Virus record (IMG/VR): IMGVR_UViG_3300037863_000030
Coordinates: 1-31,524 of that record
Length of the DNA: 31,524 nt
Source of the DNA: a virus
Taxonomy: Duplodnaviria; Caudoviricetes
Direction: 5' to 3' (one strand)
Of the stretch, positions 2,993 through 31,524 are shown one piece after another. The translations under genes and the position numbers were made by a program. The notes beneath the pieces were generated by a model. That model was not told the origin of the DNA. It did no database searches and was given only the letters and a program-made list of their open reading frames with translations. The number at the start of each line of letters is the position of its first letter. The stretch's first letter is position 1.

Positions 2993-5900
2993 CTACACCT
3001 CACTCAGATAGACTGTCATGGTTGGTCCTTCTGCAGCCTTTGCATACTCTATATTATATACTACAAACCTAGTCTCTGGTGATGAGATAACATCAATATT
3101 TTCATCATCTTTATAATTAATGTTTACCAAATCTCCAATTTGTAAAGTTGACATTGGAAAAATTTGAAGTCCAATAGCCTTTCTTGGTCTAAGGTTTTTT
3201 TGAATCACCCATCCAAGAATATTTTCTGCAGTATCTTGATCCTGTATATATTCGCTATCCAGCGTAAACTCATTCTTACCATATAGGATCCTACTTGTTT
3301 TAATGCTATCGTATTCATTTGTAAACTTGTAAGGAGAAGATATTAATACATCCCCCTTGAGTTCTGGATCTGAAAAACTTCCACGCTTCTTGTAATAGTC
3401 ATCAACAGTAATTTTATTTGTTGTGTCTTGTGTAAAAGTTATACCAAAGATTCTTAAATAGTTTCCAGTAGTTTCATCTAAATTTAAAAGAGTATCTGTA
3501 TTATTAAATATTAAAAACTCTGCCCCATAGGAACTTGCAGAAAATCCAGATACGGTATAGCCACGCAATCTATTAAATGTCGGGGCTATCTGTGCATATA
3601 GGGCAGGATATGCACGATCATATTTAATATTAAAATAAGCACACTCACGCATAATTGTTCCAAATTCTTCAAAGTATATATTATATGCCTTTGTGGATGT
3701 TGGACTAATACCAGATAGATATGTTTTTTGAATAATGCCAGACATGGCGTATTTATTTAATGCTTCGCTAGCATTAACTTGCAAGTTGTCATCTACAAAC
3801 ACAGATGCCACTGGGGTATTTAGATCAAAGACGCCATTGTCAGCATAGTTTTTACTTAATGCGTATACATTTTCAAACATAAGTTTTGATGTTCCACGAA
3901 CAAACAACCCAATAGAAGGATCAACTAAGGATATAGGATCTTGATCTGTTATAACCTTAATAAGTTTTTGATTTAAATAAAGATAAAATACTCTTGTTGT
4001 TGGATTAATATCTACATACTCCATAGATAAATCATAAACTGTTGGGTTTTCTTCACCAACAAATCTATATTGACCTGTAAAGTTTCCATCATCTACAAGG
4101 ATATTTGCGCTGCCACCCCAAAGTTTTGTTGGCAAAGCACTTGAAGATCCAACAGCCTTTTGAACTTTATAAAATAAAACATTGTCTACTGATATTTGAG
4201 AAGAGCCACTTTCAGTATCGATAGTTAAAGATCTTTCAATAGTACTTGATGTAAGAGCATTTAGTTCAAAGTAGTATCCATTGTTTGTTATTGGATTTAT
4301 TAAACATATTCCTCCAGATCCTCCTCCAATTGATACTGTCTGTGTTGGATCAGTTCCTGGAATGTTGTAGTATGTCATTCCTCCTACGGGACTTTGAGAT
4401 CTGTCCCCCGCTGATTCAATTTTTCCAACAATTCTTAGTCTAGTCCCAAAGTGTTTATATGCACCATCAAGTTTTTTCCAAACATATGAAACAAAGTTTC
4501 TTGGATTTTCTTGAATTGCAAACTCTGGTCCATTAAAAACAAGGGCAGAAGATTGAATAGTTCCTGCTTGAGCAGTTTGAATTGAAGAAATTCCAGTCTC
4601 TGTTTTATATGCTGTAGATAAAAAGTTTTTAATAATGCTATTTCTTTGTGATTTGTCAGCACGCTGCTTGTTAACTCCTGCTGCTCCTGCCTCAACCTCT
4701 ACCTCTGCCCCAGTAGATGTAGTATAGAGTAATTGAGAATCCATCTCACAACCCTGAACATAAAGATTATTTGTCCAGTACGAGTCTACTCCTGCTGAGT
4801 GAATGGTAACTGGAGTGTTAAATTGTCCCCTGCCATGTGATACTACAGCGCCATTTTTAATTTTTGTTATTCCGTCAATAACTTCGTAGTAGGGTTCAGA
4901 ATAAATTCTAACTAATCCAGTTGGATAAATTTTTCCATTAAAGGGAAGTTCTGAAAAATATTTTTGGTACTCTAAGTTTGTTGTAATCCAAATATTTCCT
5001 GTTCCAGTTATATTATACTCAACTGCATCATATTTTATGACCTCACCATTAGCATAGAAGTAACCCTGAAATCTTGTAATATAAAAGATGTTTTCACCAA
5101 AGTCAAGAATATTATTAATTAGTCTTCTATTTAAGACTGTAGGAATACTAGCAGAAAGATTTGAATTTAAAGGCATTGCCCCAAGTGTATACTTTTTTTG
5201 TTTTTCATTGTTTAAAGTTTTTGTTGCTTCAGTTCCAGAAATTTCCCAAAGAAGTACTGGCTTGTATATCCAAGTTTTTTCTTGATCGGTCATCTGAGAT
5301 TGCTTTAAACTTCCATAAGATCTTTGAATATATCTAGAGGTATAGTTGATTGTTCCAGCATTATATACCTTCTGATCTTGAGAAGAAATTTCAATAATGT
5401 TTGATAGTTTTACTGGATAAGTATTTTCATTTATCCCACTCATCAACTCATCCTGAGATCCATACAGCGTCATGTTTAATTCTCTAACATTTGTATCATC
5501 AAGTAAATAGTTTTTACTCATTACAACAAAATTATTATATTCATCAAAGAACATTGCTGTCTGTGTGGCAACTGCCAACTTATTTAAAACCTCTGCAACA
5601 CTTTGTTCTGGTGAGATAAAGAAAAATGGAATAACTGGATCAGACTCATCTGGTAGTCTTTTAAAGATGTAGTTAGAAAATCCAATAGAGTCAAGCAAGA
5701 TACTAACTGCTTGTCCTAAAGAAACCTCAGTTATAAAAATTTCTGGTGCCTTGATTGATTCAAGATAAAAATAAAAATCTCTAAGGTTAATTTCTATTGT
5801 TCCTGCTGTTTGATCTGTTTGTGGAATTCCTTCAGAGTACAGATTTTTAACTGGGACATAATAGTTTGTATTGTTTACATTTTTAATTACATCATAAAAT

Positions 5901-7339
5901 GAAAACTTTATATTTTTTTGAACATATTTGGCAATTATACTTCCTGAATCGCCATCCCAAATATTGTTTAGGTTAAAGGCTGAGTCATCATCAAATAAAG
6001 AAACGCTTCCAGTAGATACCGCAAGTTCTCCTACTGGTAATGCAGAAGTTGTCATGTTTGATAAAACCTTTGTTAATTTAAAATTTAACAATCTTTCTGT
6101 TAAGTCAACAACAAGTCTTGGAGAAATCTCAATTAACTCAAATGGAACATCTGGAATACTCATTGACTCAACAACAACTCTAATTCCTTTAATCCAAACA
6201 AACTCTCTATAAACTTTTGTTGATGTATTTACGTTAGTAAAATATAATGGGTTTGTTAAGTTTGTAACAAATTGAGTATTTTCATATACTCCATCGGTTC
6301 CAATTTTCCAAGAGTATTCAGGAGTATAAACCTGAAACTCATTTCCATCATAAATATAAAGAGTTCCTTGCTGTCCTCCTTCTGTTAAAACAATATAAGC
6401 ATTTCCAATATCAGCATCAAGATTTATAAGACCAAATTTTTCAATTGTGCCAATTAAAATAAAGTTATTTTTATATTGCTCTGGTATATTTAATCCATAC
6501 TCTAAACTTAAATATCCATCACTTCCAAAAACTGGAGTATTGTCAGACCTTGTTGTTGCATCTGAAAATGTATAGGCTGTAGCCCATTCATCTGTAGGAG
6601 TTAAATACTCAACTCTAAATCTTTTAGGAACTGTTTTGTTTGCTTCTCCGTATAAAGGATCTAGTTTTGTTCCAGAAGAACCTTTAAACGGTCCAAGGTT
6701 AATATCTCCAATATGGGTTTGAACCTTTACCACAAGTCTATTTGCTGGAACTTCTTCTTTATAAACAACAAATGGAACTGCATCATCTATAAAGTGAACA
6801 GCGTTACTGCTATTTTTAGAAATACCATATTCAACATTTGCTGTTGTAAGGGTAGTCCCTGTGCTTTCAGTTCTAAAAGATCTCCAATATTTAAATTCAT
6901 CATCTCTATGGGGCATATAGTACCTTGGTCTAAGATACATATCTTTATTTACATTAGATAAATACTTATTGGTAAAGAATGATGCTTTATTAATTCCAGA
7001 CCGTGGTCTAAATGGCTTTAAGCAATCTTCTAAAGAGTAATATAGTTTTTCTTTATCTTTTGTATATTTAAATAGTAGCGGAGTAGAGTCATCAACTTGA
7101 TACCCAGCCTCTACAGAAACCTCTGAATTCAAAGCATTGGTATAAAAGTTTCCTGAGTCTGATCTATCAAAAAAGTTTGGGATTGCGCTGTACTGTGCCC
7201 CTGCTTTGCGATATCTATAGTTTCCTAGTTTAAATATATTTCCTGGCACATTCATATTCCACTCTGTTATTAGTGCAGAAGCAGAACTTACTGTAAAGGA
7301 TGATTCGAGATGATCCTGTAACTCTTCATTCTCAAACAC
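2993..7339 (-). CDS. Large tail-tip / baseplate hub (central fibre-type) protein
   Basis: ~1448 aa. Start re-assigned to GTG at 7339 (VFENEEL), which follows GAGG and the upstream stop; the 7396 start overlaps the previous gene. Second gene after the tape measure, with a C-terminal LQIGDLVNINY...FVVYNIEY pattern typical of tail-tip hub proteins. Confidence 0.7.
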   Translation of the reverse strand: MFENEELQDHLESSFTVSSASALITEWNMNVPGNIFKLGNYRYRKAGAQYSAIPNFFDRSDSGNFYTNALNSEVSVEAGYQVDDSTPLLFKYTKDKEKLYYSLEDCLKPFRPRSGINKASFFTNKYLSNVNKDMYLRPRYYMPHRDDEFKYWRSFRTESTGTTLTTANVEYGISKNSSNAVHFIDDAVPFVVYKEEVPANRLVVKVQTHIGDINLGPFKGSSGTKLDPLYGEANKTVPKRFRVEYLTPTDEWATAYTFSDATTRSDNTPVFGSDGYLSLEYGLNIPEQYKNNFILIGTIEKFGLINLDADIGNAYIVLTEGGQQGTLYIYDGNEFQVYTPEYSWKIGTDGVYENTQFVTNLTNPLYFTNVNTSTKVYREFVWIKGIRVVVESMSIPDVPFELIEISPRLVVDLTERLLNFKLTKVLSNMTTSALPVGELAVSTGSVSLFDDDSAFNLNNIWDGDSGSIIAKYVQKNIKFSFYDVIKNVNNTNYYVPVKNLYSEGIPQTDQTAGTIEINLRDFYFYLESIKAPEIFITEVSLGQAVSILLDSIGFSNYIFKRLPDESDPVIPFFFISPEQSVAEVLNKLAVATQTAMFFDEYNNFVVMSKNYLLDDTNVRELNMTLYGSQDELMSGINENTYPVKLSNIIEISSQDQKVYNAGTINYTSRYIQRSYGSLKQSQMTDQEKTWIYKPVLLWEISGTEATKTLNNEKQKKYTLGAMPLNSNLSASIPTVLNRRLINNILDFGENIFYITRFQGYFYANGEVIKYDAVEYNITGTGNIWITTNLEYQKYFSELPFNGKIYPTGLVRIYSEPYYEVIDGITKIKNGAVVSHGRGQFNTPVTIHSAGVDSYWTNNLYVQGCEMDSQLLYTTSTGAEVEVEAGAAGVNKQRADKSQRNSIIKNFLSTAYKTETGISSIQTAQAGTIQSSALVFNGPEFAIQENPRNFVSYVWKKLDGAYKHFGTRLRIVGKIESAGDRSQSPVGGMTYYNIPGTDPTQTVSIGGGSGGICLINPITNNGYYFELNALTSSTIERSLTIDTESGSSQISVDNVLFYKVQKAVGSSSALPTKLWGGSANILVDDGNFTGQYRFVGEENPTVYDLSMEYVDINPTTRVFYLYLNQKLIKVITDQDPISLVDPSIGLFVRGTSKLMFENVYALSKNYADNGVFDLNTPVASVFVDDNLQVNASEALNKYAMSGIIQKTYLSGISPTSTKAYNIYFEEFGTIMRECAYFNIKYDRAYPALYAQIAPTFNRLRGYTVSGFSASSYGAEFLIFNNTDTLLNLDETTGNYLRIFGITFTQDTTNKITVDDYYKKRGSFSDPELKGDVLISSPYKFTNEYDSIKTSRILYGKNEFTLDSEYIQDQDTAENILGWVIQKNLRPRKAIGLQIFPMSTLQIGDLVNINYKDDENIDVISSPETRFVVYNIEYAKAAEGPTMTVYLSEV

Positions 7340-7340
7340 T

Positions 7341-8030
7341 TTAAACCTCTTCCAGCGATACCGTAATATTCCAAAGGTCGTGATTACTTCCACCACGTTT
7401 TACAACTGTATAATCAAAAGAAGATACATACATTTGAACAATCTGGTTATATTGATTTAATCTTAAAAGTCGGGTTGCATCATCTTCTGCAAAGTTAATG
7501 TATTTATCATAGGCTAAAAATACCCAGAAAGGACCTTTATGATTTTGATACCAATCCAACATTTCGCCTCCGCCTGCTCCACCATCTGCAGTGTATTCTG
7601 TATTTGTGTTGTAGGTCAAACCACTAGCATTACGTTGAGCGGCTTCTCTTGCTATAAACCCTGCATCAATATTTCCAGTGCTTTGTGAAAAGTTGGGTTT
7701 TATAGGATAAGATCTAGATGGAAGCATTTGCCATGAAGTGCTAAGATTAATTTTGTCAGCAATATGGTGAGATCTCATTGTCCCATTAATCATTCTTTGT
7801 CGTTTTTCAATTCTCTGTGGGCTGATAGAAAAATCAGACCTATTATGATCAGTCAATATTAAAAATGAATTAGCAGCATCTTGTGCAGAAATATTAGTAA
7901 GGTCAGATCCAACCTCATAGCCAGATGGGACGTACTTGCCTCCTGAGAGGATTCCTGGAGTGTCTGACCAAAGCATACCTTGGGGCCTTGCAAACCTTTG
8001 TCTGCCCTGCATATAGCCTGTGGATGCCAT
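7341..8030 (-). CDS. Distal tail (Dit-like) protein
   Basis: 229 aa, first gene after the tape measure (TAATG overlap), ending in WNITVSLEEV, a typical distal-tail C-terminus. Positional call. Confidence 0.6.
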   Translation of the reverse strand: MASTGYMQGRQRFARPQGMLWSDTPGILSGGKYVPSGYEVGSDLTNISAQDAANSFLILTDHNRSDFSISPQRIEKRQRMINGTMRSHHIADKINLSTSWQMLPSRSYPIKPNFSQSTGNIDAGFIAREAAQRNASGLTYNTNTEYTADGGAGGGEMLDWYQNHKGPFWVFLAYDKYINFAEDDATRLLRLNQYNQIVQMYVSSFDYTVVKRGGSNHDLWNITVSLEEV

Positions 8031-11000
8031 TATACGACCTGTCTCCTAATTCTTTGTCCCTCAAGTTGCTTAATCTTTTTAATAACGGTATTGGCTACAT
8101 CATCTGCATCCATGTCGCTTCCATTAACGCTAAGGCTTAGGTTATAATTATACACGTCATTGCCTGTTGGTGTACCGTTATTTATATTATTAAGATTTTG
8201 TACCCCGAAATTTTCAACTCCAGTTCTGCTAATAATAAACTCTCCTGGACTAAGCATTGCTGGTATTTTATCTGAACCACGAGCCATGCCTCCGATAGCC
8301 AAATATTTAGGTTTAACCATTCCACCACTAGCCAAATATTTAGGTTTAACCATTCCACCACTAGCCAAAAAACTAAATGCTGAGTATCCTGTACCTGTTC
8401 TTTTATCAAGATTAGAAACTGCTGGATTACTTCCTGTTGCTGCAGCAGTTGGCAAAGTAATTTTTGTTCCAGAGAATATTGTTTCTCCATTATTATACTT
8501 AGAATCTGTTGTAAGTTTAGGGTTTACAGCAAGAATTGCAGATACTGTTGTTCCATTGGCTTTGGCAATGCTAGATAAAGTATCTCCAGATTTTACAACT
8601 ACTGGAGGCTTTGTGGGTGGTGCGGCTGGCTTTGGTGTAGGTGCTGCTCCTGCAGATGCATCTGATGGCTTTGGTGTAGGTGCTGTAGGTTCTGATGTAG
8701 GTTCTGGTGTAGGACTAATATCATTTTGAATTGCTGATACAGATCCTGGAACAGCCTTTGTATAAGAATTAATCTTACCAATAATGGTATCCCACTCTGC
8801 AGCAATTGCTTGTGATGATGCAAGTAACCCTCCAAGGGCTGTATCAAAATTTTTAGATGCTAAATCACTTGCTGCAATCTTTACTCTTACGCCTTCCCAT
8901 GCAGTAGCATTTTGTCCAAGAACTGTAATCTCTCCAACTAGTTTATCAATTCTTGCCTGTGCAAGAGTGTTCTCATCTCCAAGTTTTGCAAGCCTATCTT
9001 GAATTGGCTTGATACTTGTAATGTTTAGTTTATATAGTTCATCTTCTTTTACTGTAATCTTAGCAATTTCAGCAGTACGTAATTGCTCAAGTGCATAAAT
9101 CTTATCTTGTTCTGCAAGAATATCTTTTTGCATTTTTAAACGAAGTGGATTATTTTCAAGATTATAGATCTTTTGAGAAATAGCGTATTGCTCTTCTTCA
9201 ATCTGTGTTTTACTTAATCCAGTAACAGCACCGCGTTGTCTTCCAAGTTCAGCGTTTCTTGCTTCCCCAAGCATATCTTGAGTAGACTTAGCAGAACTTG
9301 CTGCTTTGGCTGCTCTCATTTCTTGAATTGCAGATGCTGCTGCAGAAATATCTCCAGAGGTTAGTGCGTCTGCTAAACCAATTTGCTTCTTCTGTTGATC
9401 AAGAATCTCATCATTAACTTGAGCAACCTTATCAAGGGCTGCTGCTTGCTCATCATATCTTTTGTTAATTTCTTCTGCAGCCTTATTCATTACATCTAGA
9501 TCATGAGAAAGAATACCTGTTCTATCTTGTAGATTTTGAATAGGTCTATTAAACTGCATCTCAATACTTCTGTCTAGAGTATCGATAGTTTTTTGATACC
9601 CTTCAATTTTACGACTAAAGTTAATTTCAACATTTCTTTGCATTGTTTCAATTGAATCAGATATAGATCTGACCTGAGCCTCATATGGAATTAATTGATC
9701 TTGAAGACTTTTCATTGTTGATTCATTGCCTCTTACGAGTTGAACATCTGTAGAACTTCTAGAGTCTATTCCAGTTCTAATTAACTGTTCTTGTACTGCA
9801 AACATCTCATCAACAATTTCAAGACCTGGTGCTGCTGCTGCAGCAAAGTCTTTTTTATTAAAGTTAGTTTTAATCTCAATAAGTTTTGTGGTTTCAATTG
9901 AATTTAAGTATTCAGCAATATTTTTTGCATCAAGTTTGCCATCAGCAAGATCTTTAATCATTGCTTTCATTAATGCTGGATTATCAAATACTGCAGCCAT
10001 TTGATCTGCACTTAAACCAATGCCCTTCATTTGCTTTGCAAGATCTGGCATTTGTTGAACTAGTTTAAAGTCTTCTGCTTTTCCAATTAAATCATTAATA
10101 AGGGCTTGTTGTTCAAGAGCATCGTTAGCAGCCTTAATATCTTTTACAAATTCGTTCATTTCTTTTGAACCTTTTTTACCAACTGTCCCAGCGGCAATAG
10201 CAGCAGCAACTGCTTGATCTTCTACAACTTTTAACGCTTCTGCTGCTGACATGCCAGATGACACAAGCATATTAAACGCTTTACTTTGAGCAGCAATCCC
10301 CTTTACTGTTTCTACCTGTATTAGTTGAAACTCTCCAAGTTGTGCTTCACGATAAGTCTGCATTACAGCCTTACCTTCTTTAGTTAAACCAGTTATATTG
10401 GCTTTTGTTTTTGGAAGGGATTTGCCATTCTTATCTTTGGCATAATCAAACATATTCTTGCCTTTAGGAAGTTTAGCAAAATCAGTAAAATCTTCTGCAG
10501 ACATTCCCATAATCATGTCTCTAAATTCTTTTGGAACATTTAACTTAAGCATACGTTGTTGCAAACCATCAAAAATAGTAAACATCTTAGACGCATCTTT
10601 TTGTGCAGCCTTGCTTGTAAATGCAGCCATCATAGACTTGAGTGGCTTAGTTGCATCAAATGCTCCATCACGAACATTCTTAATTCTCATCGCAAGGGAA
10701 TCAAGGAAATCTAAAGGATCTTTTTTATCTCCTCCAGTTTTATCACCACCTGGAACTTTTGCTTCTTTTGATGTTATTAATGGGTCTACCCCATACTTTG
10801 CAACAACACCCTTTTGTGCATAGTCCACTGCAGTTTTATAATCATTAATTGTAATTGGTTTTCCGTCTGGTCCGACTGTAAGTGCTTTTAATACTATTGC
10901 ATATTCTTTTGTATATGCAGTTGAACCAACATTACCTTTAAGTGCTGCTGCCATTTCTGCTTGTGCTGTAACCCAAATCATTCTTTCTTTTTCATCTTTA

Positions 11001-16544: not shown

Positions 16545-16868
16545 TTACTTCATATTAGGTAGTAGATCTGCTGCATCACTTAATTGAATACCAGAGGCTG
16601 CGTCAACAATTGCATAAACTGTTGGCAGATCTAGGTTATCTTCGATTGCAGATCTATTTTCTGCAAGTAGCGGTAAAAATTGCTTGAATGCAATTTGAAC
16701 ACAATCTAACAGAACGTCCATTGATTTTTCATTATCCTCTGCCACCTCAGATAGTTCTTGGAACCTCTTCATGAATGGCTTAAGCAAAGAAATCTTTAGC
16801 GGTTTTACTTCAAACTTTGTACCATCCATTAGGGATAGTTCTTTTTTTTCGTGTACGGTTGTAGACAT
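16545..16868 (-). CDS. Tail assembly chaperone, stand-alone G-type copy
   Basis: 107 aa immediately upstream of the tape measure, AGGAGG RBS at 16879-16884, paralogous to the N-terminal ~95 aa of the upstream gene. Confidence 0.75.
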   Translation of the reverse strand: MSTTVHEKKELSLMDGTKFEVKPLKISLLKPFMKRFQELSEVAEDNEKSMDVLLDCVQIAFKQFLPLLAENRSAIEDNLDLPTVYAIVDAASGIQLSDAADLLPNMK

Positions 16869-16901
16869 TATTGTATTTCCTCCTATTAGTTTACATTGTT
16901 A

Positions 16902-16910
16902 ATTATAGCA
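16902..16910 (-). promoter_or_regulatory. Extended -10 promoter TGCTATAAT overlapping the last codons (ATG CTA TAA) of the upstream chaperone
   Basis: Perfect TGnTATAAT, 33 nt upstream of the ATG at 16868. Confidence 0.7.
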
Positions 16911-17619
16911 TAACGCTGGGATCTCTTGCATCTTCATAATCCAAGCCCATGCCAATTCCAAACCCTGCTTTCATAGCATTTGCGCCCTGTAAAGCAAGCA
17001 CATCTTTACTATCAGTTGCCTGACCCTTACTGAAGACTCTTGCCTTCATGTCTTCCCACTCTTGCTGCCCCTTCTTTTCTCCAGAGTTCTTATCTAAATC
17101 TACACCCTGAATGGCTGCAAGAAACTTTTTGTCTTCATACTCTAACTCTCTTTTAATTCCCAAAGTAATAATGAGTTCTGGCATAGAGAGTGATCTTTCT
17201 AGTTCGTCAAAATCTTTCCAAATCCCCAGCAAAAATACTTCTGACTCTAACTTAGCAAGGTCTAAATCTTCCCAGTTAGTTCCTTCTTTTTTAGACGACT
17301 CTGCCTGTTCTTTGACTGGCTCGTCTTTATCTTTATTAATTTTTATGTTTGCAGACATGTCTAAAACATCATAGACTGTTGGCATATCCATACTGTCCTG
17401 TAAATCTTCAAGTGTCTTAATTGATGGATAGAATTGTTTCATGCATATTCTTGCACAATCAGACAACAGGTTCATGGCATCTTCATCAGTTTTAACATCT
17501 TTCATGTCTTCAAACTTAACCATAAATTCACGCAGATATTTAATCTTAAGTGGTGAGAGTTCTATCTCTGTACCATCAATAAGATAAATTACACCCGTTT
17601 TATATATTTCTGTAGCCAT
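16903..17619 (-). CDS. Tail assembly chaperone, in-frame G-T-type fusion
   Basis: 238 aa from ATG 17619 (MATEIY). This start aligns with the paralog's start, whereas the 17643 start lies in the terminator tail. G-like N-domain, charged linker, then a second domain (LAKLESEVFLLGIWKDFDELERSLSMPEL). Lies between tail tube and tape measure. Confidence 0.7.
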   Translation of the reverse strand: MATEIYKTGVIYLIDGTEIELSPLKIKYLREFMVKFEDMKDVKTDEDAMNLLSDCARICMKQFYPSIKTLEDLQDSMDMPTVYDVLDMSANIKINKDKDEPVKEQAESSKKEGTNWEDLDLAKLESEVFLLGIWKDFDELERSLSMPELIITLGIKRELEYEDKKFLAAIQGVDLDKNSGEKKGQQEWEDMKARVFSKGQATDSKDVLALQGANAMKAGFGIGMGLDYEDARDPSVML

Positions 17620-17633
17620 ATGTCCCCAAACCA

Positions 17634-17642
17634 AGTCTACCA
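17634..17642 (-). promoter_or_regulatory. Non-consensus extended -10 promoter TGGTAGACT
   Basis: TGG-TAnnnT directly after the terminator U-tract, 14 nt upstream of ATG 17619. Confidence 0.5.
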
Positions 17643-17678
17643 CAAAACAACAAAGCCCACCTCCGAAGAGATGGGCTT
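17643..17678 (-). terminator. Intrinsic terminator after the major tail gene
   Basis: RNA AAGCCCAUCUC-UUCG-GAGGUGGGCUU (11-bp stem with one G:U, C(UUCG)G tetraloop) followed by UGUUGUUUUG. Confidence 0.9.
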
Positions 17679-17696
17679 GTCGTATAATTTATTAAA

Positions 17697-18332
17697 TTAT
17701 GATACTGGTGCGAAGGTACGATCTACGATCTTACCGTATGAACCAGATATGTCCTCTGGAAGGAGACGGAATGATACTTCAAACATTGAAGCCTCATCAC
17801 GCTTTGCAGATACTGTAACATTTTCGATTGAAAGTGCACGGTATGCTGTGTATACACGCTCTACTGTTGCAGAGTTAGCGCAATCACCTGTACCTGGACC
17901 AATTGCAACGATACCACGCTCAACTGGGCATTCGCCAAGTTCTCCAGCAGAAAGGTTAAGAACCTGTCCTCCTGAAGTACTTTTTGTACCAGTAAGTTGG
18001 TCATCATTGAATGCTAAAGCAAGTAGAAGATTTTCTAGTGTTGCTTCAGCAAAAGCAGTTGCAAGGTTAACCTGCATGCCCTGCTTGTATAGTTTAGCAA
18101 CGTCAAGAATCTGGTCAACCTGAACTTCACCGAAGTCTGGTTGGAACTGCAGTTCAAGACCGTTCATAGTGTAACCTACGTTTGTGTAGGTAGCGTCATC
18201 AGATAGAGTTTCTCTAAATGATTCTGATCCTACGAATGATTCCAGTGTGCCTGGAAGTAATGTAGTATCTGCAACAAACATTGCTGCTGCTCCAACGATG
18301 ATGTTGGAAGACGAACCACGACTATATGCCAT
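17697..18332 (-). CDS. Major tail tube protein
   Basis: 211 aa. Siphovirus tube-like motifs NIIVGAA, VGYTMNGLELQFQPDFGEVQVDQ, FAEATLENL, FEVSFRLLP. GAGGTG RBS, own promoter and terminator. Confidence 0.85.
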   Translation of the reverse strand: MAYSRGSSSNIIVGAAAMFVADTTLLPGTLESFVGSESFRETLSDDATYTNVGYTMNGLELQFQPDFGEVQVDQILDVAKLYKQGMQVNLATAFAEATLENLLLALAFNDDQLTGTKSTSGGQVLNLSAGELGECPVERGIVAIGPGTGDCANSATVERVYTAYRALSIENVTVSAKRDEASMFEVSFRLLPEDISGSYGKIVDRTFAPVS

Positions 18333-18391: not shown

Positions 18392-18400
18392 ATTATAACA
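18392..18400 (-). promoter_or_regulatory. Extended -10 promoter TGTTATAAT
   Basis: Perfect TGnTATAAT in the gap upstream of the major tail gene. Confidence 0.75.
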
Positions 18401-21407: not shown

Positions 21408-21416
21408 ATTATACCA
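21408..21416 (-). promoter_or_regulatory. Extended -10 promoter TGGTATAAT
   Basis: Perfect motif between the capsid terminator and the AGGAGG at 21397-21402. Confidence 0.75.
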
Positions 21417-23981: not shown

Positions 23982-23990
23982 ATTATACCA
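23982..23990 (-). promoter_or_regulatory. Extended -10 promoter TGGTATAAT (near-leaderless protease mRNA)
   Basis: Perfect motif 9 nt upstream of ATG 23972 with no SD in between. Confidence 0.75.
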
Positions 23991-26014: not shown

Positions 26015-29000
26015 TTATACCGCTATTCGGGTTACGGTTGACCATGTTACGTCATTATAAACACGCACATCTTCTGGTGCAACCGAAACTCCATCTACTC
26101 CATCGTCTACAAGGATTCTGTTAGTTCCCATATATTTGTCATAAATAATAGTTGGATCAATAGAATAAACATTAATTGTATTAACAATCTTAACTTCGTT
26201 CCATGTAAATGCATTTTGCCAGTAATCCCATCCACCTGGATCTCCTTGAGTGAGAACATCTCCCCAAGTTCTTACCTCAACACGCTGATTCTGCTCAAGG
26301 TTTGTAGCAAGGTAGTATGAAGCATTGTTATAAGTTAGTGGACCATTTAGATTAATACGACCAGTGTATTGATCAAAACTAATAAGTTCTGTAAATGCTA
26401 CAGATAAAACAGTCCATTGTTCATTAACTAAGTAAGGAGTCTGTACTGGCTTACCATTAACATAATAATCAATTGAAGATATTTCTGCCCCAGTTAATCT
26501 ATCTACTGCATAGACATAACCTCTTTGGCCACTAGCATCACCTTCTAGATAAAAATCAAAGATACCGTTCTTGTGGTCTACGGACATAATAAGCATTGAG
26601 CCTGTAGGGAATACTCTGTCTGCAAACTTTGCCCAGACCTGAATAGTACTTACCTCTGTTCCAAGACCTTTTTGTACGTTTACTGGGATAGAGATTCCTC
26701 TTTCAGTTATTTCTGAGAAGTCCCCCAAAATTTTCCAACCTGAGTGTTTAGTTAAGTATAAGTATGGAGTGCTACCCTTATAAGTGGCAATAGGGTTCTT
26801 TCCTTTAAAGTCATAGTATAGCCCAGTCTTTTTATATGGATAAACTGGAACACCAAACTTTGTTCCTATCTCTGTAAACTGTTTTCTTTCAAGAACCTGA
26901 GAAGCAAGTTGCAATCTTCTAAATTTAACGGGGTGATGTAAAATTCCTTCTGAGTTAAAATCAAGATGGTAAACAAGGGCTAGATCGTTAAAGTCAACAG
27001 GTCGATTTTGATCAGTTTTTGTTGGTGGATAAATTATAGATCCATCAACAACTTCGTAAGCCGTGTCTTCCCAGTTGCCAGAGATAATTGCTGGATCAGC
27101 AGTCCCCTTAACTCTTGCTGTTGCAAAATTTGCAAAGTCTAGAAGGTTAGTGTTTGCCCCATCTTTAGTGTACTGAAAAGAAACATAAGCACGAACAGCA
27201 CTTCTTTCTGTATCATAATAATAGAACTTGCTTGAGTCTTGTGACATATCTTCATAGTTGTCCCAGCCACTATAGAAGTTGTTATCAAGAGATGCGTAAG
27301 ACTGCTGGCTTGGAGTATAGTATCTAGTCTTAAGATCGTCATATGTCCAAGAAGATACTGACTCAAGAGAGTTAGTTTCAATAGGCTCTGGGAAATCCAT
27401 ATTGAATTGAATTGAGTCTAAGTCGTAAAATGTGTTGCCTTCATAGTCTTCTACATACTTTGCAAAATATGACAATGGCATATAATCTTCCCAATACCCC
27501 GCCACAGCAATATCTGCAAACATTAGTCCATATTTTTGGATAGGCTTAAGAGTATAGTTAGCAACATGATTAAGCATTGTAGTTGCATTATTTGTGGAGT
27601 TAATAAAAATACCATCTTCTCCATACTGAGTAAGGATCTTTCTATTATTATAAGAAGAGTTAAATCCAAACCTATACATCTTACCAGTAAAAGATTGCAC
27701 CTTATCTCCAGCAATTAAGATTGTTAGGTTTGATTGGTTTGTAAAGAACTTGTTTATACTTGACACTGTCTGTGATGATAGATTTTTAATATTGATACCT
27801 GCAACAAATCGTGTATTTGCAGATATTGAGATACTCTTAAAGGTCGTGCTAGTTCCAGAAATATTAAAGACATAACTCAGGGTTGTTCCATTTACCATAA
27901 CAGATAAAGAATCTTTGGTCATCTTGTTATCTATTCTAAACAAGGTTTGGTTTGTTGCAGTTCCGTCTGTTTCAAATACTCCGTAAATGCTTTCTACTGA
28001 CTCATTTAGTACCCCTAGATTATTAAAAAACATATAGGCATTAGTTGAGTTCCAACCAGAGTTAGGTCTGAAGGTAAAGTACTTTAGGTTTGTTCCACTC
28101 TCCGCAGCCTGCATTTGATCAAACCACTCTTGATTTGTTTTTGTTCCTAAAGAAAACTCAGGTAATTTATACTCTGGAAGAGTCAAGAACCTAGATGAAG
28201 TTTCCACGTTACTGAAGAATGCCTGTCTCCAGGTTGCAAAATCTGGGTAGTTATAGTTAACAGCATAATCTGCAAAAGAATAATCATTAAATACAGTAGT
28301 TCCACTAAGAGATGCATTCGTGGTTTCTGGTGCTACTACCGCTTGTCCCCATACCCATCTTCTTTTTGCTACCTCAGTTGGAACGGAATAAGAGTAAATT
28401 GAAAAAGAATCAATATCAATTGGGTGAACATCTGCATAAGCATAAAATCCAAGCCAGTCTTGGCTCTCATTTGAACCATTAAACTCTGCTGGTAGGCCTA
28501 CTGTTGTTTGGTTAAAAGGAATCTCTGCAACTTCTTCACCATTTAAAACAAGGGTAACTGTATCTTTAATTATTCTAATATGAATAAGCATTGGTCTAAG
28601 CCATTCACCAACATAGTGTGACTTATAGTTATTGCCAACAACAATTGTTAAGAATCCACCTTCAACATAAAGACCATCATTTGATGCAATAGGGCCAAAA
28701 ATCTTTTTAGGTTCTAGGGAGTCAGAACTTACTCTTATCCACATCTCTGCTGTGTAGTCGTTATACCTTCCACGCTCATTTAGAAATCCGTACCCTGGCA
28801 AAATAATAGATGGATAGTTGATTCCAGATAAAAGGTTTTCATAAATTTTTGTTACATTTGCTGATCCATAAACCAAAGGAATTCCAAAGTATTTAGCAAA
28901 AAGAGTTGAGTTGTTTGCTAAGTAATATCCATTAATTGTTGATGCTCCATAAGGTACTGCATCAACAACTTTTAAAGATGATGGTAATGCTATGTTTGTG

Positions 29001-29644
29001 GGGATTGCAGAAGTCCTAATGCCTACAGAATTCTTATTAAAATCTTCAGACCATTGACCAACACTTAACCCATTAATGAAGAAGTCGTAGTCTCCAACAC
29101 CTCCTCCAGTAGATATGCTAATTTTAAATAACAGTTTTACATTTGTAGAACCTACTGGAGGTAAAGAAAATGTGTTTGAGTAAAAGTTCCAAAACCCTGC
29201 ATCCAGAGTTGAGAGTGTTTCTGTTTTTAAAACCTCTATAATTGTTGATGTTGCAGGGTCAGTATATTTATACCCATACTGAATTGAACTTGCATTAGTA
29301 TTGTCTGGATAAAAATAAAACCCTATTGCAAAGTTTGATAGGTCTGTTTCAAAGTTTGATAAATTAATGTTATAAACGCTTGTAGCAGTAATAACAGTTG
29401 GAGATACAGAAGGAATAGATGCTGAGATTCTATTAACAAGAGATGTTTTTATTGGGGTATTCTCAGGAATAGGATCTTCTTGAGTTGCCGTGGCATTGAC
29501 CAAAGTCCATTGACCGCCTGAGTCAAACCGTCTATTAGTCTCACTGATTGTAGATAAATAGTCAACTTCCTCGTTGAGCATCCAAACAGCCAAGGGGTGC
29601 TCTGAGTTAATTTTTTCTACGTATAAGTTAGATTGAGTAGTCAT
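26015..29644 (-). CDS. Large LamG/concanavalin-A-like virion-type protein (putative minor tail or carbohydrate-binding protein)
   Basis: 1209 aa, beta-rich. HPLAVWMLNE start and TAEMWIR...VTLVLNGEEV...IDSFSIYSY fit the LamG pattern. Trp-rich TWxD/E-type segments at the C-terminus. AGGAGA RBS. Confidence 0.55.
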   Translation of the reverse strand: MTTQSNLYVEKINSEHPLAVWMLNEEVDYLSTISETNRRFDSGGQWTLVNATATQEDPIPENTPIKTSLVNRISASIPSVSPTVITATSVYNINLSNFETDLSNFAIGFYFYPDNTNASSIQYGYKYTDPATSTIIEVLKTETLSTLDAGFWNFYSNTFSLPPVGSTNVKLLFKISISTGGGVGDYDFFINGLSVGQWSEDFNKNSVGIRTSAIPTNIALPSSLKVVDAVPYGASTINGYYLANNSTLFAKYFGIPLVYGSANVTKIYENLLSGINYPSIILPGYGFLNERGRYNDYTAEMWIRVSSDSLEPKKIFGPIASNDGLYVEGGFLTIVVGNNYKSHYVGEWLRPMLIHIRIIKDTVTLVLNGEEVAEIPFNQTTVGLPAEFNGSNESQDWLGFYAYADVHPIDIDSFSIYSYSVPTEVAKRRWVWGQAVVAPETTNASLSGTTVFNDYSFADYAVNYNYPDFATWRQAFFSNVETSSRFLTLPEYKLPEFSLGTKTNQEWFDQMQAAESGTNLKYFTFRPNSGWNSTNAYMFFNNLGVLNESVESIYGVFETDGTATNQTLFRIDNKMTKDSLSVMVNGTTLSYVFNISGTSTTFKSISISANTRFVAGINIKNLSSQTVSSINKFFTNQSNLTILIAGDKVQSFTGKMYRFGFNSSYNNRKILTQYGEDGIFINSTNNATTMLNHVANYTLKPIQKYGLMFADIAVAGYWEDYMPLSYFAKYVEDYEGNTFYDLDSIQFNMDFPEPIETNSLESVSSWTYDDLKTRYYTPSQQSYASLDNNFYSGWDNYEDMSQDSSKFYYYDTERSAVRAYVSFQYTKDGANTNLLDFANFATARVKGTADPAIISGNWEDTAYEVVDGSIIYPPTKTDQNRPVDFNDLALVYHLDFNSEGILHHPVKFRRLQLASQVLERKQFTEIGTKFGVPVYPYKKTGLYYDFKGKNPIATYKGSTPYLYLTKHSGWKILGDFSEITERGISIPVNVQKGLGTEVSTIQVWAKFADRVFPTGSMLIMSVDHKNGIFDFYLEGDASGQRGYVYAVDRLTGAEISSIDYYVNGKPVQTPYLVNEQWTVLSVAFTELISFDQYTGRINLNGPLTYNNASYYLATNLEQNQRVEVRTWGDVLTQGDPGGWDYWQNAFTWNEVKIVNTINVYSIDPTIIYDKYMGTNRILVDDGVDGVSVAPEDVRVYNDVTWSTVTRIAV

Positions 29645-29686: not shown

Positions 29687-31524
29687 CTAAATTAGACAGT
29701 TGTCATTGTTACAATATTTTTCTCCCAAGGCATCAAGGTTTTCAATCCCGTCATAAATAGCAGACCAATCAATCTTTGCTATTTTGCCAAGATAATCCTT
29801 ATACTCTTCTTCTGTAATCTCTTGGTAAGGTTGCTGAGGATAGACCTTATTCCCCATTGGCAAGAAGGAAACTGCCTTTAACTGACCCTCATACATGTGA
29901 AGGGCTGGAGCAACAAATTTCTTTTCTGTTTCTTTATCAAAAGATAACGTTACAGAAACGCCATTGTCTGACCAGTACTTTTGAGATGTAGCAGCAAGTC
30001 CAATTTTTTCAAATAGGCTAACTTGTTTTTCAGAACGCTTATGCTCAGACTTGATTGGAAAATATACTACAGATGTTTCTTCTGAATACACATCATCTTC
30101 AATTCTGTACCCTGCTGCTTTAAACAAATGCATCATGTTATCTTGCTTGCCAAAACGAACAGCACGAAGATAAAAGGCTCCTCCTGGCCCCCAGTGAACT
30201 CCAGGTGTAGCACCAGATAAGAGTGAGACTGAGCCTGAAGGCTTAACAGTTGTTACACGAATTGACTCACGAATACATAGCCATTCTGAATATTGCTTAT
30301 CATAATGACGAATCTTGTTGTATCCTTCGTCCATCCACTCACGAGTAATTGGCAAACCATGCTCATCAGCAAAAGATGCAATACCTGTAAGGGATGTTCC
30401 AATACGACGATTACGTTGCATGATACCGTTTGTTTGTTGCCAGTGTGTAGGCATAAGAGTTACAGTCTTTCCATATAGGTATGCAAACTTTAATGTCTTA
30501 AGGAAATCTTCTTTAGAATCGTGACGATTTAAATGTACTTCTACAAGAGTACACATTTCTCCACTTTCAAGATCCATCTCAGCACAGGGATTCATTCCCA
30601 TAACACGATAATCTTTTCCATCTGCAGGATCTGCAAGACGACCAAAGTTGCGAGCAACATCAAGCCAAATGAAACCTGGCTCTCCATTGTCTGCAATTAG
30701 GTCTACATACTCTTCATAGTTTGTTCCAACTTTTGCTGAGATTGAGTTATTAGACATATACGCCCATCCAGGATTTTTTGGATCATAAGAATTTCTTTCT
30801 GGAAAAACTTCTGCATTCTTTAGGTTAATAAAATCTTTATCTTCTGGTGACCCAAGTGCAAGGGTAGCAGAACGACGAACATTACCAGCAACAACACATG
30901 TACCAATAAGATTAATAATATCTACAATTGCACGAGAGTCAAGAATCTCTCCTGCTCTACCGCCAATTACTTTACGAATGCGAGTATGCAAATCCATCAA
31001 GGGTTGTGGGCCAGAGGCTGTTCCACCAAACCCCTTAATAGGAGCACCTAGTGGACGAACTTCTGAATAGTCAAATTCTTGGATACTTTGGTTTTGACGA
31101 AGGAATGAGTTTAATAAGATACGTATTGATTCTACCCAGCCTTCTCTGGTGTCTGGAATGACATAGGTGTTTACAGGCTCTGTAGGGGCATAGATGGGCA
31201 TTTCTTTATCCTGACCAACTGTATCAAACCCTACGCCAATACCCAGCATAAGGGCGTCCATAACCCACGCAAACAGTGCTCCTGGGTCGTTCCTATCAAT
31301 GTCTCTTGTTGAGATCATTGCACAGTTCTGCAAAGAAGCAGAATTGCGTTTTTCCATTGTCATTGGAGTTCCAAAAGCCCACATTCCACGGCCTGGTGGA
31401 GTCCACTTTAAATTAAACATGCGGTCATAGGCTTCTTGTGCAGATTTTTGGGCTTTATTATCTGACCAAGGTAATCTGCTATCTTTGGCATGATTTTTTT
31501 GTACTGAATACATTCCTTCAATTA
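29687..31524 (-). CDS. nrdJ: Class II adenosylcobalamin-dependent ribonucleotide reductase (monomeric RTPR type), 5'-truncated by the window
   Basis: Motifs WTPPGRG, LQNC, VVAGNVRRSA, NPCAE...C, TTVKPSGSVS and C-terminal redox pair CNNDNC. The frame stays open to the edge (..IEGMYSVQK). Confidence 0.92.
   Translation of the reverse strand, partial: IEGMYSVQKNHAKDSRLPWSDNKAQKSAQEAYDRMFNLKWTPPGRGMWAFGTPMTMEKRNSASLQNCAMISTRDIDRNDPGALFAWVMDALMLGIGVGFDTVGQDKEMPIYAPTEPVNTYVIPDTREGWVESIRILLNSFLRQNQSIQEFDYSEVRPLGAPIKGFGGTASGPQPLMDLHTRIRKVIGGRAGEILDSRAIVDIINLIGTCVVAGNVRRSATLALGSPEDKDFINLKNAEVFPERNSYDPKNPGWAYMSNNSISAKVGTNYEEYVDLIADNGEPGFIWLDVARNFGRLADPADGKDYRVMGMNPCAEMDLESGEMCTLVEVHLNRHDSKEDFLKTLKFAYLYGKTVTLMPTHWQQTNGIMQRNRRIGTSLTGIASFADEHGLPITREWMDEGYNKIRHYDKQYSEWLCIRESIRVTTVKPSGSVSLLSGATPGVHWGPGGAFYLRAVRFGKQDNMMHLFKAAGYRIEDDVYSEETSVVYFPIKSEHKRSEKQVSLFEKIGLAATSQKYWSDNGVSVTLSFDKETEKKFVAPALHMYEGQLKAVSFLPMGNKVYPQQPYQEITEEEYKDYLGKIAKIDWSAIYDGIENLDALGEKYCNNDNCLI

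Follow-up and report, generated by a model that had tools for sequence, protein, structure and literature searches.

Two related genes of a phage, lying between its tail tube and tape measure genes, very probably encode the long (GT) and the short (G) tail assembly chaperone without a frameshift, with differing start signals that would keep G in excess of GT; we put the probability of this reading at roughly 0.8. They lie in a stretch of 31,524 nucleotides (the window), a 31.5-kb linear fragment of a phage record estimated to be 29% complete. Few recoding events in long-tailed phages are as conserved as the G/GT frameshift. In the present case a large phage lineage appears to have dropped it while its nearest relatives retain the −1 layout, and the replacement control elements are readable in the DNA. 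The excess of G over GT is one that we infer from sequence proxies, namely promoter motif, Shine-Dalgarno (SD) motif and codon bias.

Layout of the locus

The minus strand of the window carries portal, protease, capsid, tube, tape measure and minor tail genes. A reading made from the sequence only had placed two genes between tail tube and tape measure, the longer one first and the 107-aa gene ending 10 nt before the tape measure gene, and the ORF map agrees on all three points. The order on the minus strand is tube gene, 238-aa ORF (GT), 107-aa ORF (free G), a 10-nt gap (16545 versus 16534) and tape measure gene. As also claimed, the 238-aa protein runs in frame through a charged linker into a second domain, with zero stops between the two. 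The features of the locus were as follows.

17697-18332, minus strand: tube gene (major tail protein), context; 211 aa, phrog_2175
17653-17678, minus strand: intrinsic-terminator-like hairpin with T tract between tube and GT; 11 pairs
17634-17642, minus strand: degenerate extended −10-like motif TGGTAGACT ahead of GT, 14 nt before the GT start
16903-17619, minus strand: GT gene, likely the long tail assembly chaperone (homology, PHROG, model); 238 aa, with a G domain at about residues 1-95, a charged linker and a T domain at 114-238, all in one frame
16903-17280, minus strand: T domain of GT, homologous to the part that frameshifting relatives carry in the −1 frame (Yaboi, L354, alignment A1)
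16902-16910, minus strand: extended −10 promoter-like motif TGCTATAAT ahead of free G, overlapping the GT stop codon
16879-16884, minus strand: Shine-Dalgarno AGGAGG, 10 nt before the free G start (from sequence)
16545-16868, minus strand: free G gene, likely the short abundant chaperone (paralogy, homologs, codon bias); 107 aa
8030-16534, minus strand: tape measure gene, context; 2834 aa, TTG start, PF10145 above cut-off

A GTG at 17643, upstream of the GT Met, would make a protein of 246 aa; the GT proteins of relatives align from the Met at 17619. The phrog_2175 protein holds the same position in relatives as genes annotated 'major tail protein'. Near its C-terminus (window 8030-8700, minus strand) the tape measure protein has a proline-rich stretch, a LysM domain and a short motif that is repeated.

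Identity of the G and T domains

BLASTP aligned the 107-aa protein with the 238-aa protein from Met1, with 36 of 101 positions identical, 2 gaps and an E value of 1e-22, in line with an earlier hand count of about 34 identities in 94 positions from Met1 and two gaps. The significance of this similarity and the resemblance of the C-terminal domain to T segments had been set beforehand as tests, and both came out positive: the window T domain matched the −1-frame T of Streptomyces phage Yaboi at 47% identity over 87 aa (E 2e-25), and also the T of the uncultured L354 at 53% identity over 116 aa. In PHROG, phrog_10504 matched both the 107-aa protein and GT residues 1-114, and a separate family, phrog_10474, matched GT residues 133-208. 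In the Yaboi record G and T are joined into one tail assembly chaperone, and Dorin is likewise annotated as joined. In tblastn searches the GT protein matched 130 phage records, in two pieces in all 60 matches listed, and free G matched 124 Streptomyces phage records, many annotated as tail assembly chaperone, these annotations being predictions. Clusters related to GT, of 130-417 aa, numbered 6669 in a protein search; the best 120 were inspected. The genes thus share with tail assembly chaperones both their position between tube and tape measure and homology to annotated (predicted) members.

No Pfam family passed the cut-off for either protein. An alignment-based model of GT reached a pLDDT of 74, and above 90 in most of G, and its best match among solved structures was YqbN (3KLU; Z 5.5, rmsd 3.9, 84 aligned, residues 1-93), a middling score. 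YqbN is described as a tail assembly chaperone in a passage of PMC9603447. The HK97 chaperone 2OB9 followed with Z 3.9 and a Foldseek E value of 4.8; Foldseek returned nothing at E 0.001 against solved structures, and a profile search of solved-structure sequences gave one weak unrelated match only. The YqbN match to the model therefore supports the chaperone reading only together with homology and position. Chaperone-labelled predicted structures were among the best structure-search matches of G, and a feature-level cluster search, which yields leads only, took G to chaperone clusters and T to clusters containing PF06223 Phage_tail_T (0.88). A single-sequence fold of the 107-aa protein (pLDDT 52) was set aside, and a predicted complex between free G and GT's G domain scored 0.10, which weighs neither for nor against.

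Fused and predicted frameshift loci exclude each other

Six scans yielded 424 loci, namely the best 80 of 335, 331, 554 and 430 confirmed stretches (two of these totals being at least the number given), plus all of 26 and all of 78. Together with 12 phage records and the window this gave 437 classified loci; two had no T match, and the remaining loci collapsed to 290 distinct junction sequences. A survey of synteny between tube and tape measure in relatives had been proposed as a check on the sequence-only reading, and it upheld that reading: an in-frame GT with a downstream free G was present in 221 of the 290 distinct loci, while 61 were split, with a single G and T always in the −1 frame, proportions that are biased by the queries, which included T-only and G-only ones. 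No second G was found in any of the 57 split loci with more than 400 nt downstream. One further locus had a fused GT at which the contig ends, six were cut upstream with the downstream G present, and in one (L376, 1-650) the GT frame is broken by one base midway through the G domain, probably through an assembly error. A mixed state, that is a GT pair together with a frameshift layout, occurred in none of the 290 distinct loci. Fused GT with free G, and a single gene with a −1 T, are states that exclude each other.

A slippery heptamer of the form X XXY YYZ (C CCA AAY or G GGA AAM) lay in the G/T overlap of 51 of the 61 split loci, and the other 10 had C CCG GA in the overlap. In L081, L083, L085, L091, L092, L173-L176 and L180 the site is found some 20 codons ahead of the G stop. 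There the sister subfamily carries C CCA AAT and Boydwoodruffvirinae carry C CCG GAA, which lies outside the tandem-slip pattern and may act by a single-tRNA slip at Pro. Among fused junctions of an earlier set, an X XXY YYZ heptamer was absent from 107 of 120, and in the same set no ±1 frame stayed open for more than 40 codons beyond the stop of any of 115 complete free G genes.

We considered whether the fusion could be an assembly error, or whether the GT gene could still give a short product by recoding. The one-base break of L376 and an A-rich heptamer at 13 of the 120 fused junctions would fit such an account. The heptamers at fused junctions, however, are not conserved, and an error is contradicted by the 221 distinct in-frame loci and by a third sequencing run, in which a contig spanning 17179-17529, G-T junction included, showed 0 differences and 0 gaps. 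Runs X1 and X2 match the junction too, but may be the source of the record. Since the third-run contig is identical and the fusion recurs across loci, the in-frame join is no assembly artefact, and we give either form of this explanation only a very slight chance.

Start signals, terminator and codon bias

Start signals were counted over distinct loci, leaving out L376, cut starts and loci with less than 70 nt upstream. Free G genes had a perfect TGnTATAAT in 218 of 221 cases and an SD motif in 220 of 221, at a median distance of 26 nt, and the G genes of near frameshifters looked alike (30 of 36 and 35 of 36, at 25 nt). GT genes had the perfect motif in 24 of 220 cases and an SD motif in 0 of 220. 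Their −10-like motif lay 10 nt or less from the ATG in 212 of 220, in other words leaderless-like, and at 5-10 nt in most relatives. The window is one of the 8 atypical GT loci of the 220, with its motif TGGTAGACT at 14 nt and a weak GGGG besides. Between tube and GT, the region 17620-17700, which contains the terminator-like hairpin, had a folding energy of −26.4 kcal/mol (z −3.75). On a codon-bias scale running from tube to tape measure genes, free G was more tube-like than either the G domain or the T domain of GT, lying above both in 60 of 60 loci. Taken across loci, start signals and codon bias point to a free copy that kept the ancestral signals and a GT that was tuned down, the promoters being putative.

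Within the window, a sigma-70 −35/−10 scan gave no excess over shuffles (45 versus 49). TGnTATAAT occurred 7 times against 2.35 expected from shuffles, with 2 of 100 shuffles reaching 7; this enrichment is modest, so the promoter case rests on conservation across loci. The motif also stands in the gaps before several late genes of the minus strand (532-540, 18392-18400, 21408-21416 and 23982-23990). Before the prohead protease gene it lies 9 nt from the ATG with no SD, so that leaderless-like starts would occur elsewhere in this genome too. In L004, L053 and L169, inserts of 170-780 nt separate GT from tube or from free G; the start signals of each gene are intact beside them, as expected if each has its own promoter. 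RNA run X23 gave contigs of relatives' tube genes only. We also considered that free G had taken over a tape measure promoter; among near frameshifters, however, the motif stands ahead of the tape measure gene in only 10 of 33, against 30 of 36 for G, and inheritance of G's own promoter is the better supported by these counts.

The same signals could reflect timing or chance in a pair of chaperone genes expressed near evenly, without a lambda-like excess of G. According to a section of PMC7148126, which for mycobacteria describes translation of leaderless transcripts as not clearly worse, efficient translation of leaderless mRNAs is possible in actinobacteria, and the similar short-leader motif of the prohead protease gene is in keeping with a near-even ratio. 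Against this, promoter match, SD and codon bias agree in direction in nearly all loci, and a ratio of 30:1 is called crucial for lambda in a passage of PMC5009743; we therefore hold a near-even ratio to be improbable. Leaderless mRNAs being not clearly poorer, a low GT output would rest on the terminator, the weaker promoter motif and the codon bias as much as on the missing SD.

Evolutionary history

In a larger tree of G domains the GT-type domains formed one clade (SH-aLRT 100) and the free G another (96). The larger trees were quick ones of 109 columns, rooted on Rhodococcus phages, and both clades fell inside the frameshifters. Such a tree had been suggested earlier as a check, and each copy forming one clade makes a single origin of the two-gene layout likely.

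The flanking genes are mosaic across two-gene and frameshifting loci. A first tree of tube plus tape measure, from which 4 of 85 rows had been dropped because their markers were short, showed the two-gene loci as a single clean clade (99), which was lost after 18 more frameshifters were added; we therefore dropped a single two-gene clade in the flanking markers. With these additions, tube plus tape measure required 2 changes, tube alone 3 and T alone 3. Loci L311 and L328 combine frameshifter-type tube, G and T with a tape measure that is sister (100) to those of the two-gene phages L096, L097, L152, L162 and L213; by sharing the same site, L316, L321 and L330 belong with them. L311 and L328 probably arose by recombination at the tape measure border, which suggests that similar tape measures can be served by either cassette.

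In both G trees, free G grouped with some frameshifters (support 86-90), apart from the G domain of GT, which sits on a long stem. In 61 of 61 loci the G of three near frameshifters resembled free G more closely than it did GT's G domain, and mean pairwise identity was 54% for GT's G domain versus 67% for free G. Taken at face value, this grouping, together with a tail region that recombines (L311/L328), would have the second copy of the same two-gene system acquired by recombination from a related frameshifting phage and not by duplication in place. However, the faster evolution of GT's G domain can push it outward, and on the 146-row set, before 17 rows were added, a tree that joined the two copies had a score better by 16.6 log units and was not rejected (p-AU 0.687). 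We regard acquisition by recombination as rather unlikely, and duplication with faster change in GT fits the G trees. The sequence-only reading of a hard-coded GT and a separate G paralog is supported by T homology, paralogy and exclusive states, with in-place duplication more probable than uptake of a second copy from a relative.

The G domains of one locus are only 29-51% identical, as might be expected if the 107-aa paralog had taken another job and GT alone did the chaperoning. The free copy, however, is conserved and is the closest to the ancestral G in sequence and signals, and free G is present exactly where the frameshift is absent, which leaves a change of job quite implausible.

On the favoured reading of a frameshift-free G and GT pair, an ancestral frameshifting gene would have been copied once. 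The upstream copy would have become fixed in the GT frame and lost its SD and most of its leader, coming to stand behind the tube terminator with a weaker promoter motif, and the downstream copy would have shed T but retained promoter, leader and strong SD from the ancestor. If lambda is a guide, the tape measure protein would be coated by many G, and a few GT would join via the G domain and recruit tube protein via T. More tentatively, and as a possibility that we hold with some doubt, the G domain of GT, freed from bulk coating, may evolve faster and may now, expressed from its own promoter, act as a rare component that starts or caps the G spiral. Both cassettes seem to work on near-related tape measures (L311/L328 versus L097 and the four others), which would amount to a natural swap experiment in which only the ratio, and not recoding, is conserved.

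Comparison with known systems

Lambda needs about 30 G per GT, and the −1 frameshift of tail assembly chaperones is conserved, by the account given in a portion of PMC5009743. As with lambda gpG/gpGT, the locus lies between tube and tape measure, the G domain is common to a short G and a long GT, and the T is homologous to the shifted-frame segment of relatives. In contrast to lambda, there are two genes whose G domains are only about 36-41% identical, the long form comes first, T is in frame where the lambda type has one locus with a shifted T and a slippery site, and the ratio would be set at transcription and initiation. As far as the sequences indicate, the view holds that the window pair would work like lambda G/GT yet stand outside the frameshift systems.

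The nearest known phages are Stanwilliamsviridae (Yaboi, Gilson, Coruscant, Circinus and others) and Rhodococcus phages Trina and Dorin, which have homologous tube, G, T and tape measure genes in the same order. They differ in having a single G overlapped by a −1 T, with slippery-type sites, in 12 of 12 records, the frameshift being predicted or annotated. Each of the 12 records had one G and a T whose −1 frame is open starting 16-82 nt ahead of the G stop, and none of these Stanwilliamsviridae and Rhodococcus phages had a second G. WhiB genes were present in four of five related records, and in four of four complete ones (101-110 kb), and cultured homologs have Streptomyces and Rhodococcus hosts; the host of the window phage is thus likely to be actinobacterial.

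A two-gene solution is not categorically new, as one is reported for some T4-like phages, where a short gene and a longer fused gene take the place of a frameshift according to a passage in PMC10885494 (citing Vladimirov, Gautam, Davidson 2022, Virology 566:9; PMID 34826709). The window, with its separate short gene and fused long gene, answers that description and resembles the T4-like chaperones as there described. Unlike the T4-like case, however, it belongs to a WhiB-carrying, likely actinobacterial, long-tailed lineage related to Stanwilliamsviridae, its two genes are adjacent and clearly paralogous, and its nearest relatives retain the −1 layout. Likeness to PF12322 T4_baseplate was weak (one member at E 0.0012; TM 0.51). 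As the layout is nested among frameshifting relatives, it likely arose separately from the T4-like pair. Some Microbacterium phages are described, in part of the literature consulted, as lacking an evident frameshift, and in this they resemble the window pair as actinobacterial phages seemingly without one; by that description they are set apart in having two ORFs and not a fused GT with a G paralog. Our literature search, which covered mainly openly available papers, found no paper on such an arrangement in the lineage of the window. What is new here is a two-gene variant with living sister phages that are predicted to frameshift. Homologous parts are available in cultured Streptomyces phages, so cassette swaps there could address the question of why the frameshift has been kept. 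Annotators who meet a long G-T gene with a short paralog after it should not force a frameshift call on the pair.

Other features of the fragment

Two large ORFs of 1209 and 1467 aa lie on the minus strand of the window at 26015-29644 and 2993-7396. The 1209-aa ORF is remote from the tail genes; it has the portal region on one side and, on the other, an ORF at 29687-31522 that by eye is ribonucleotide-reductase-like.
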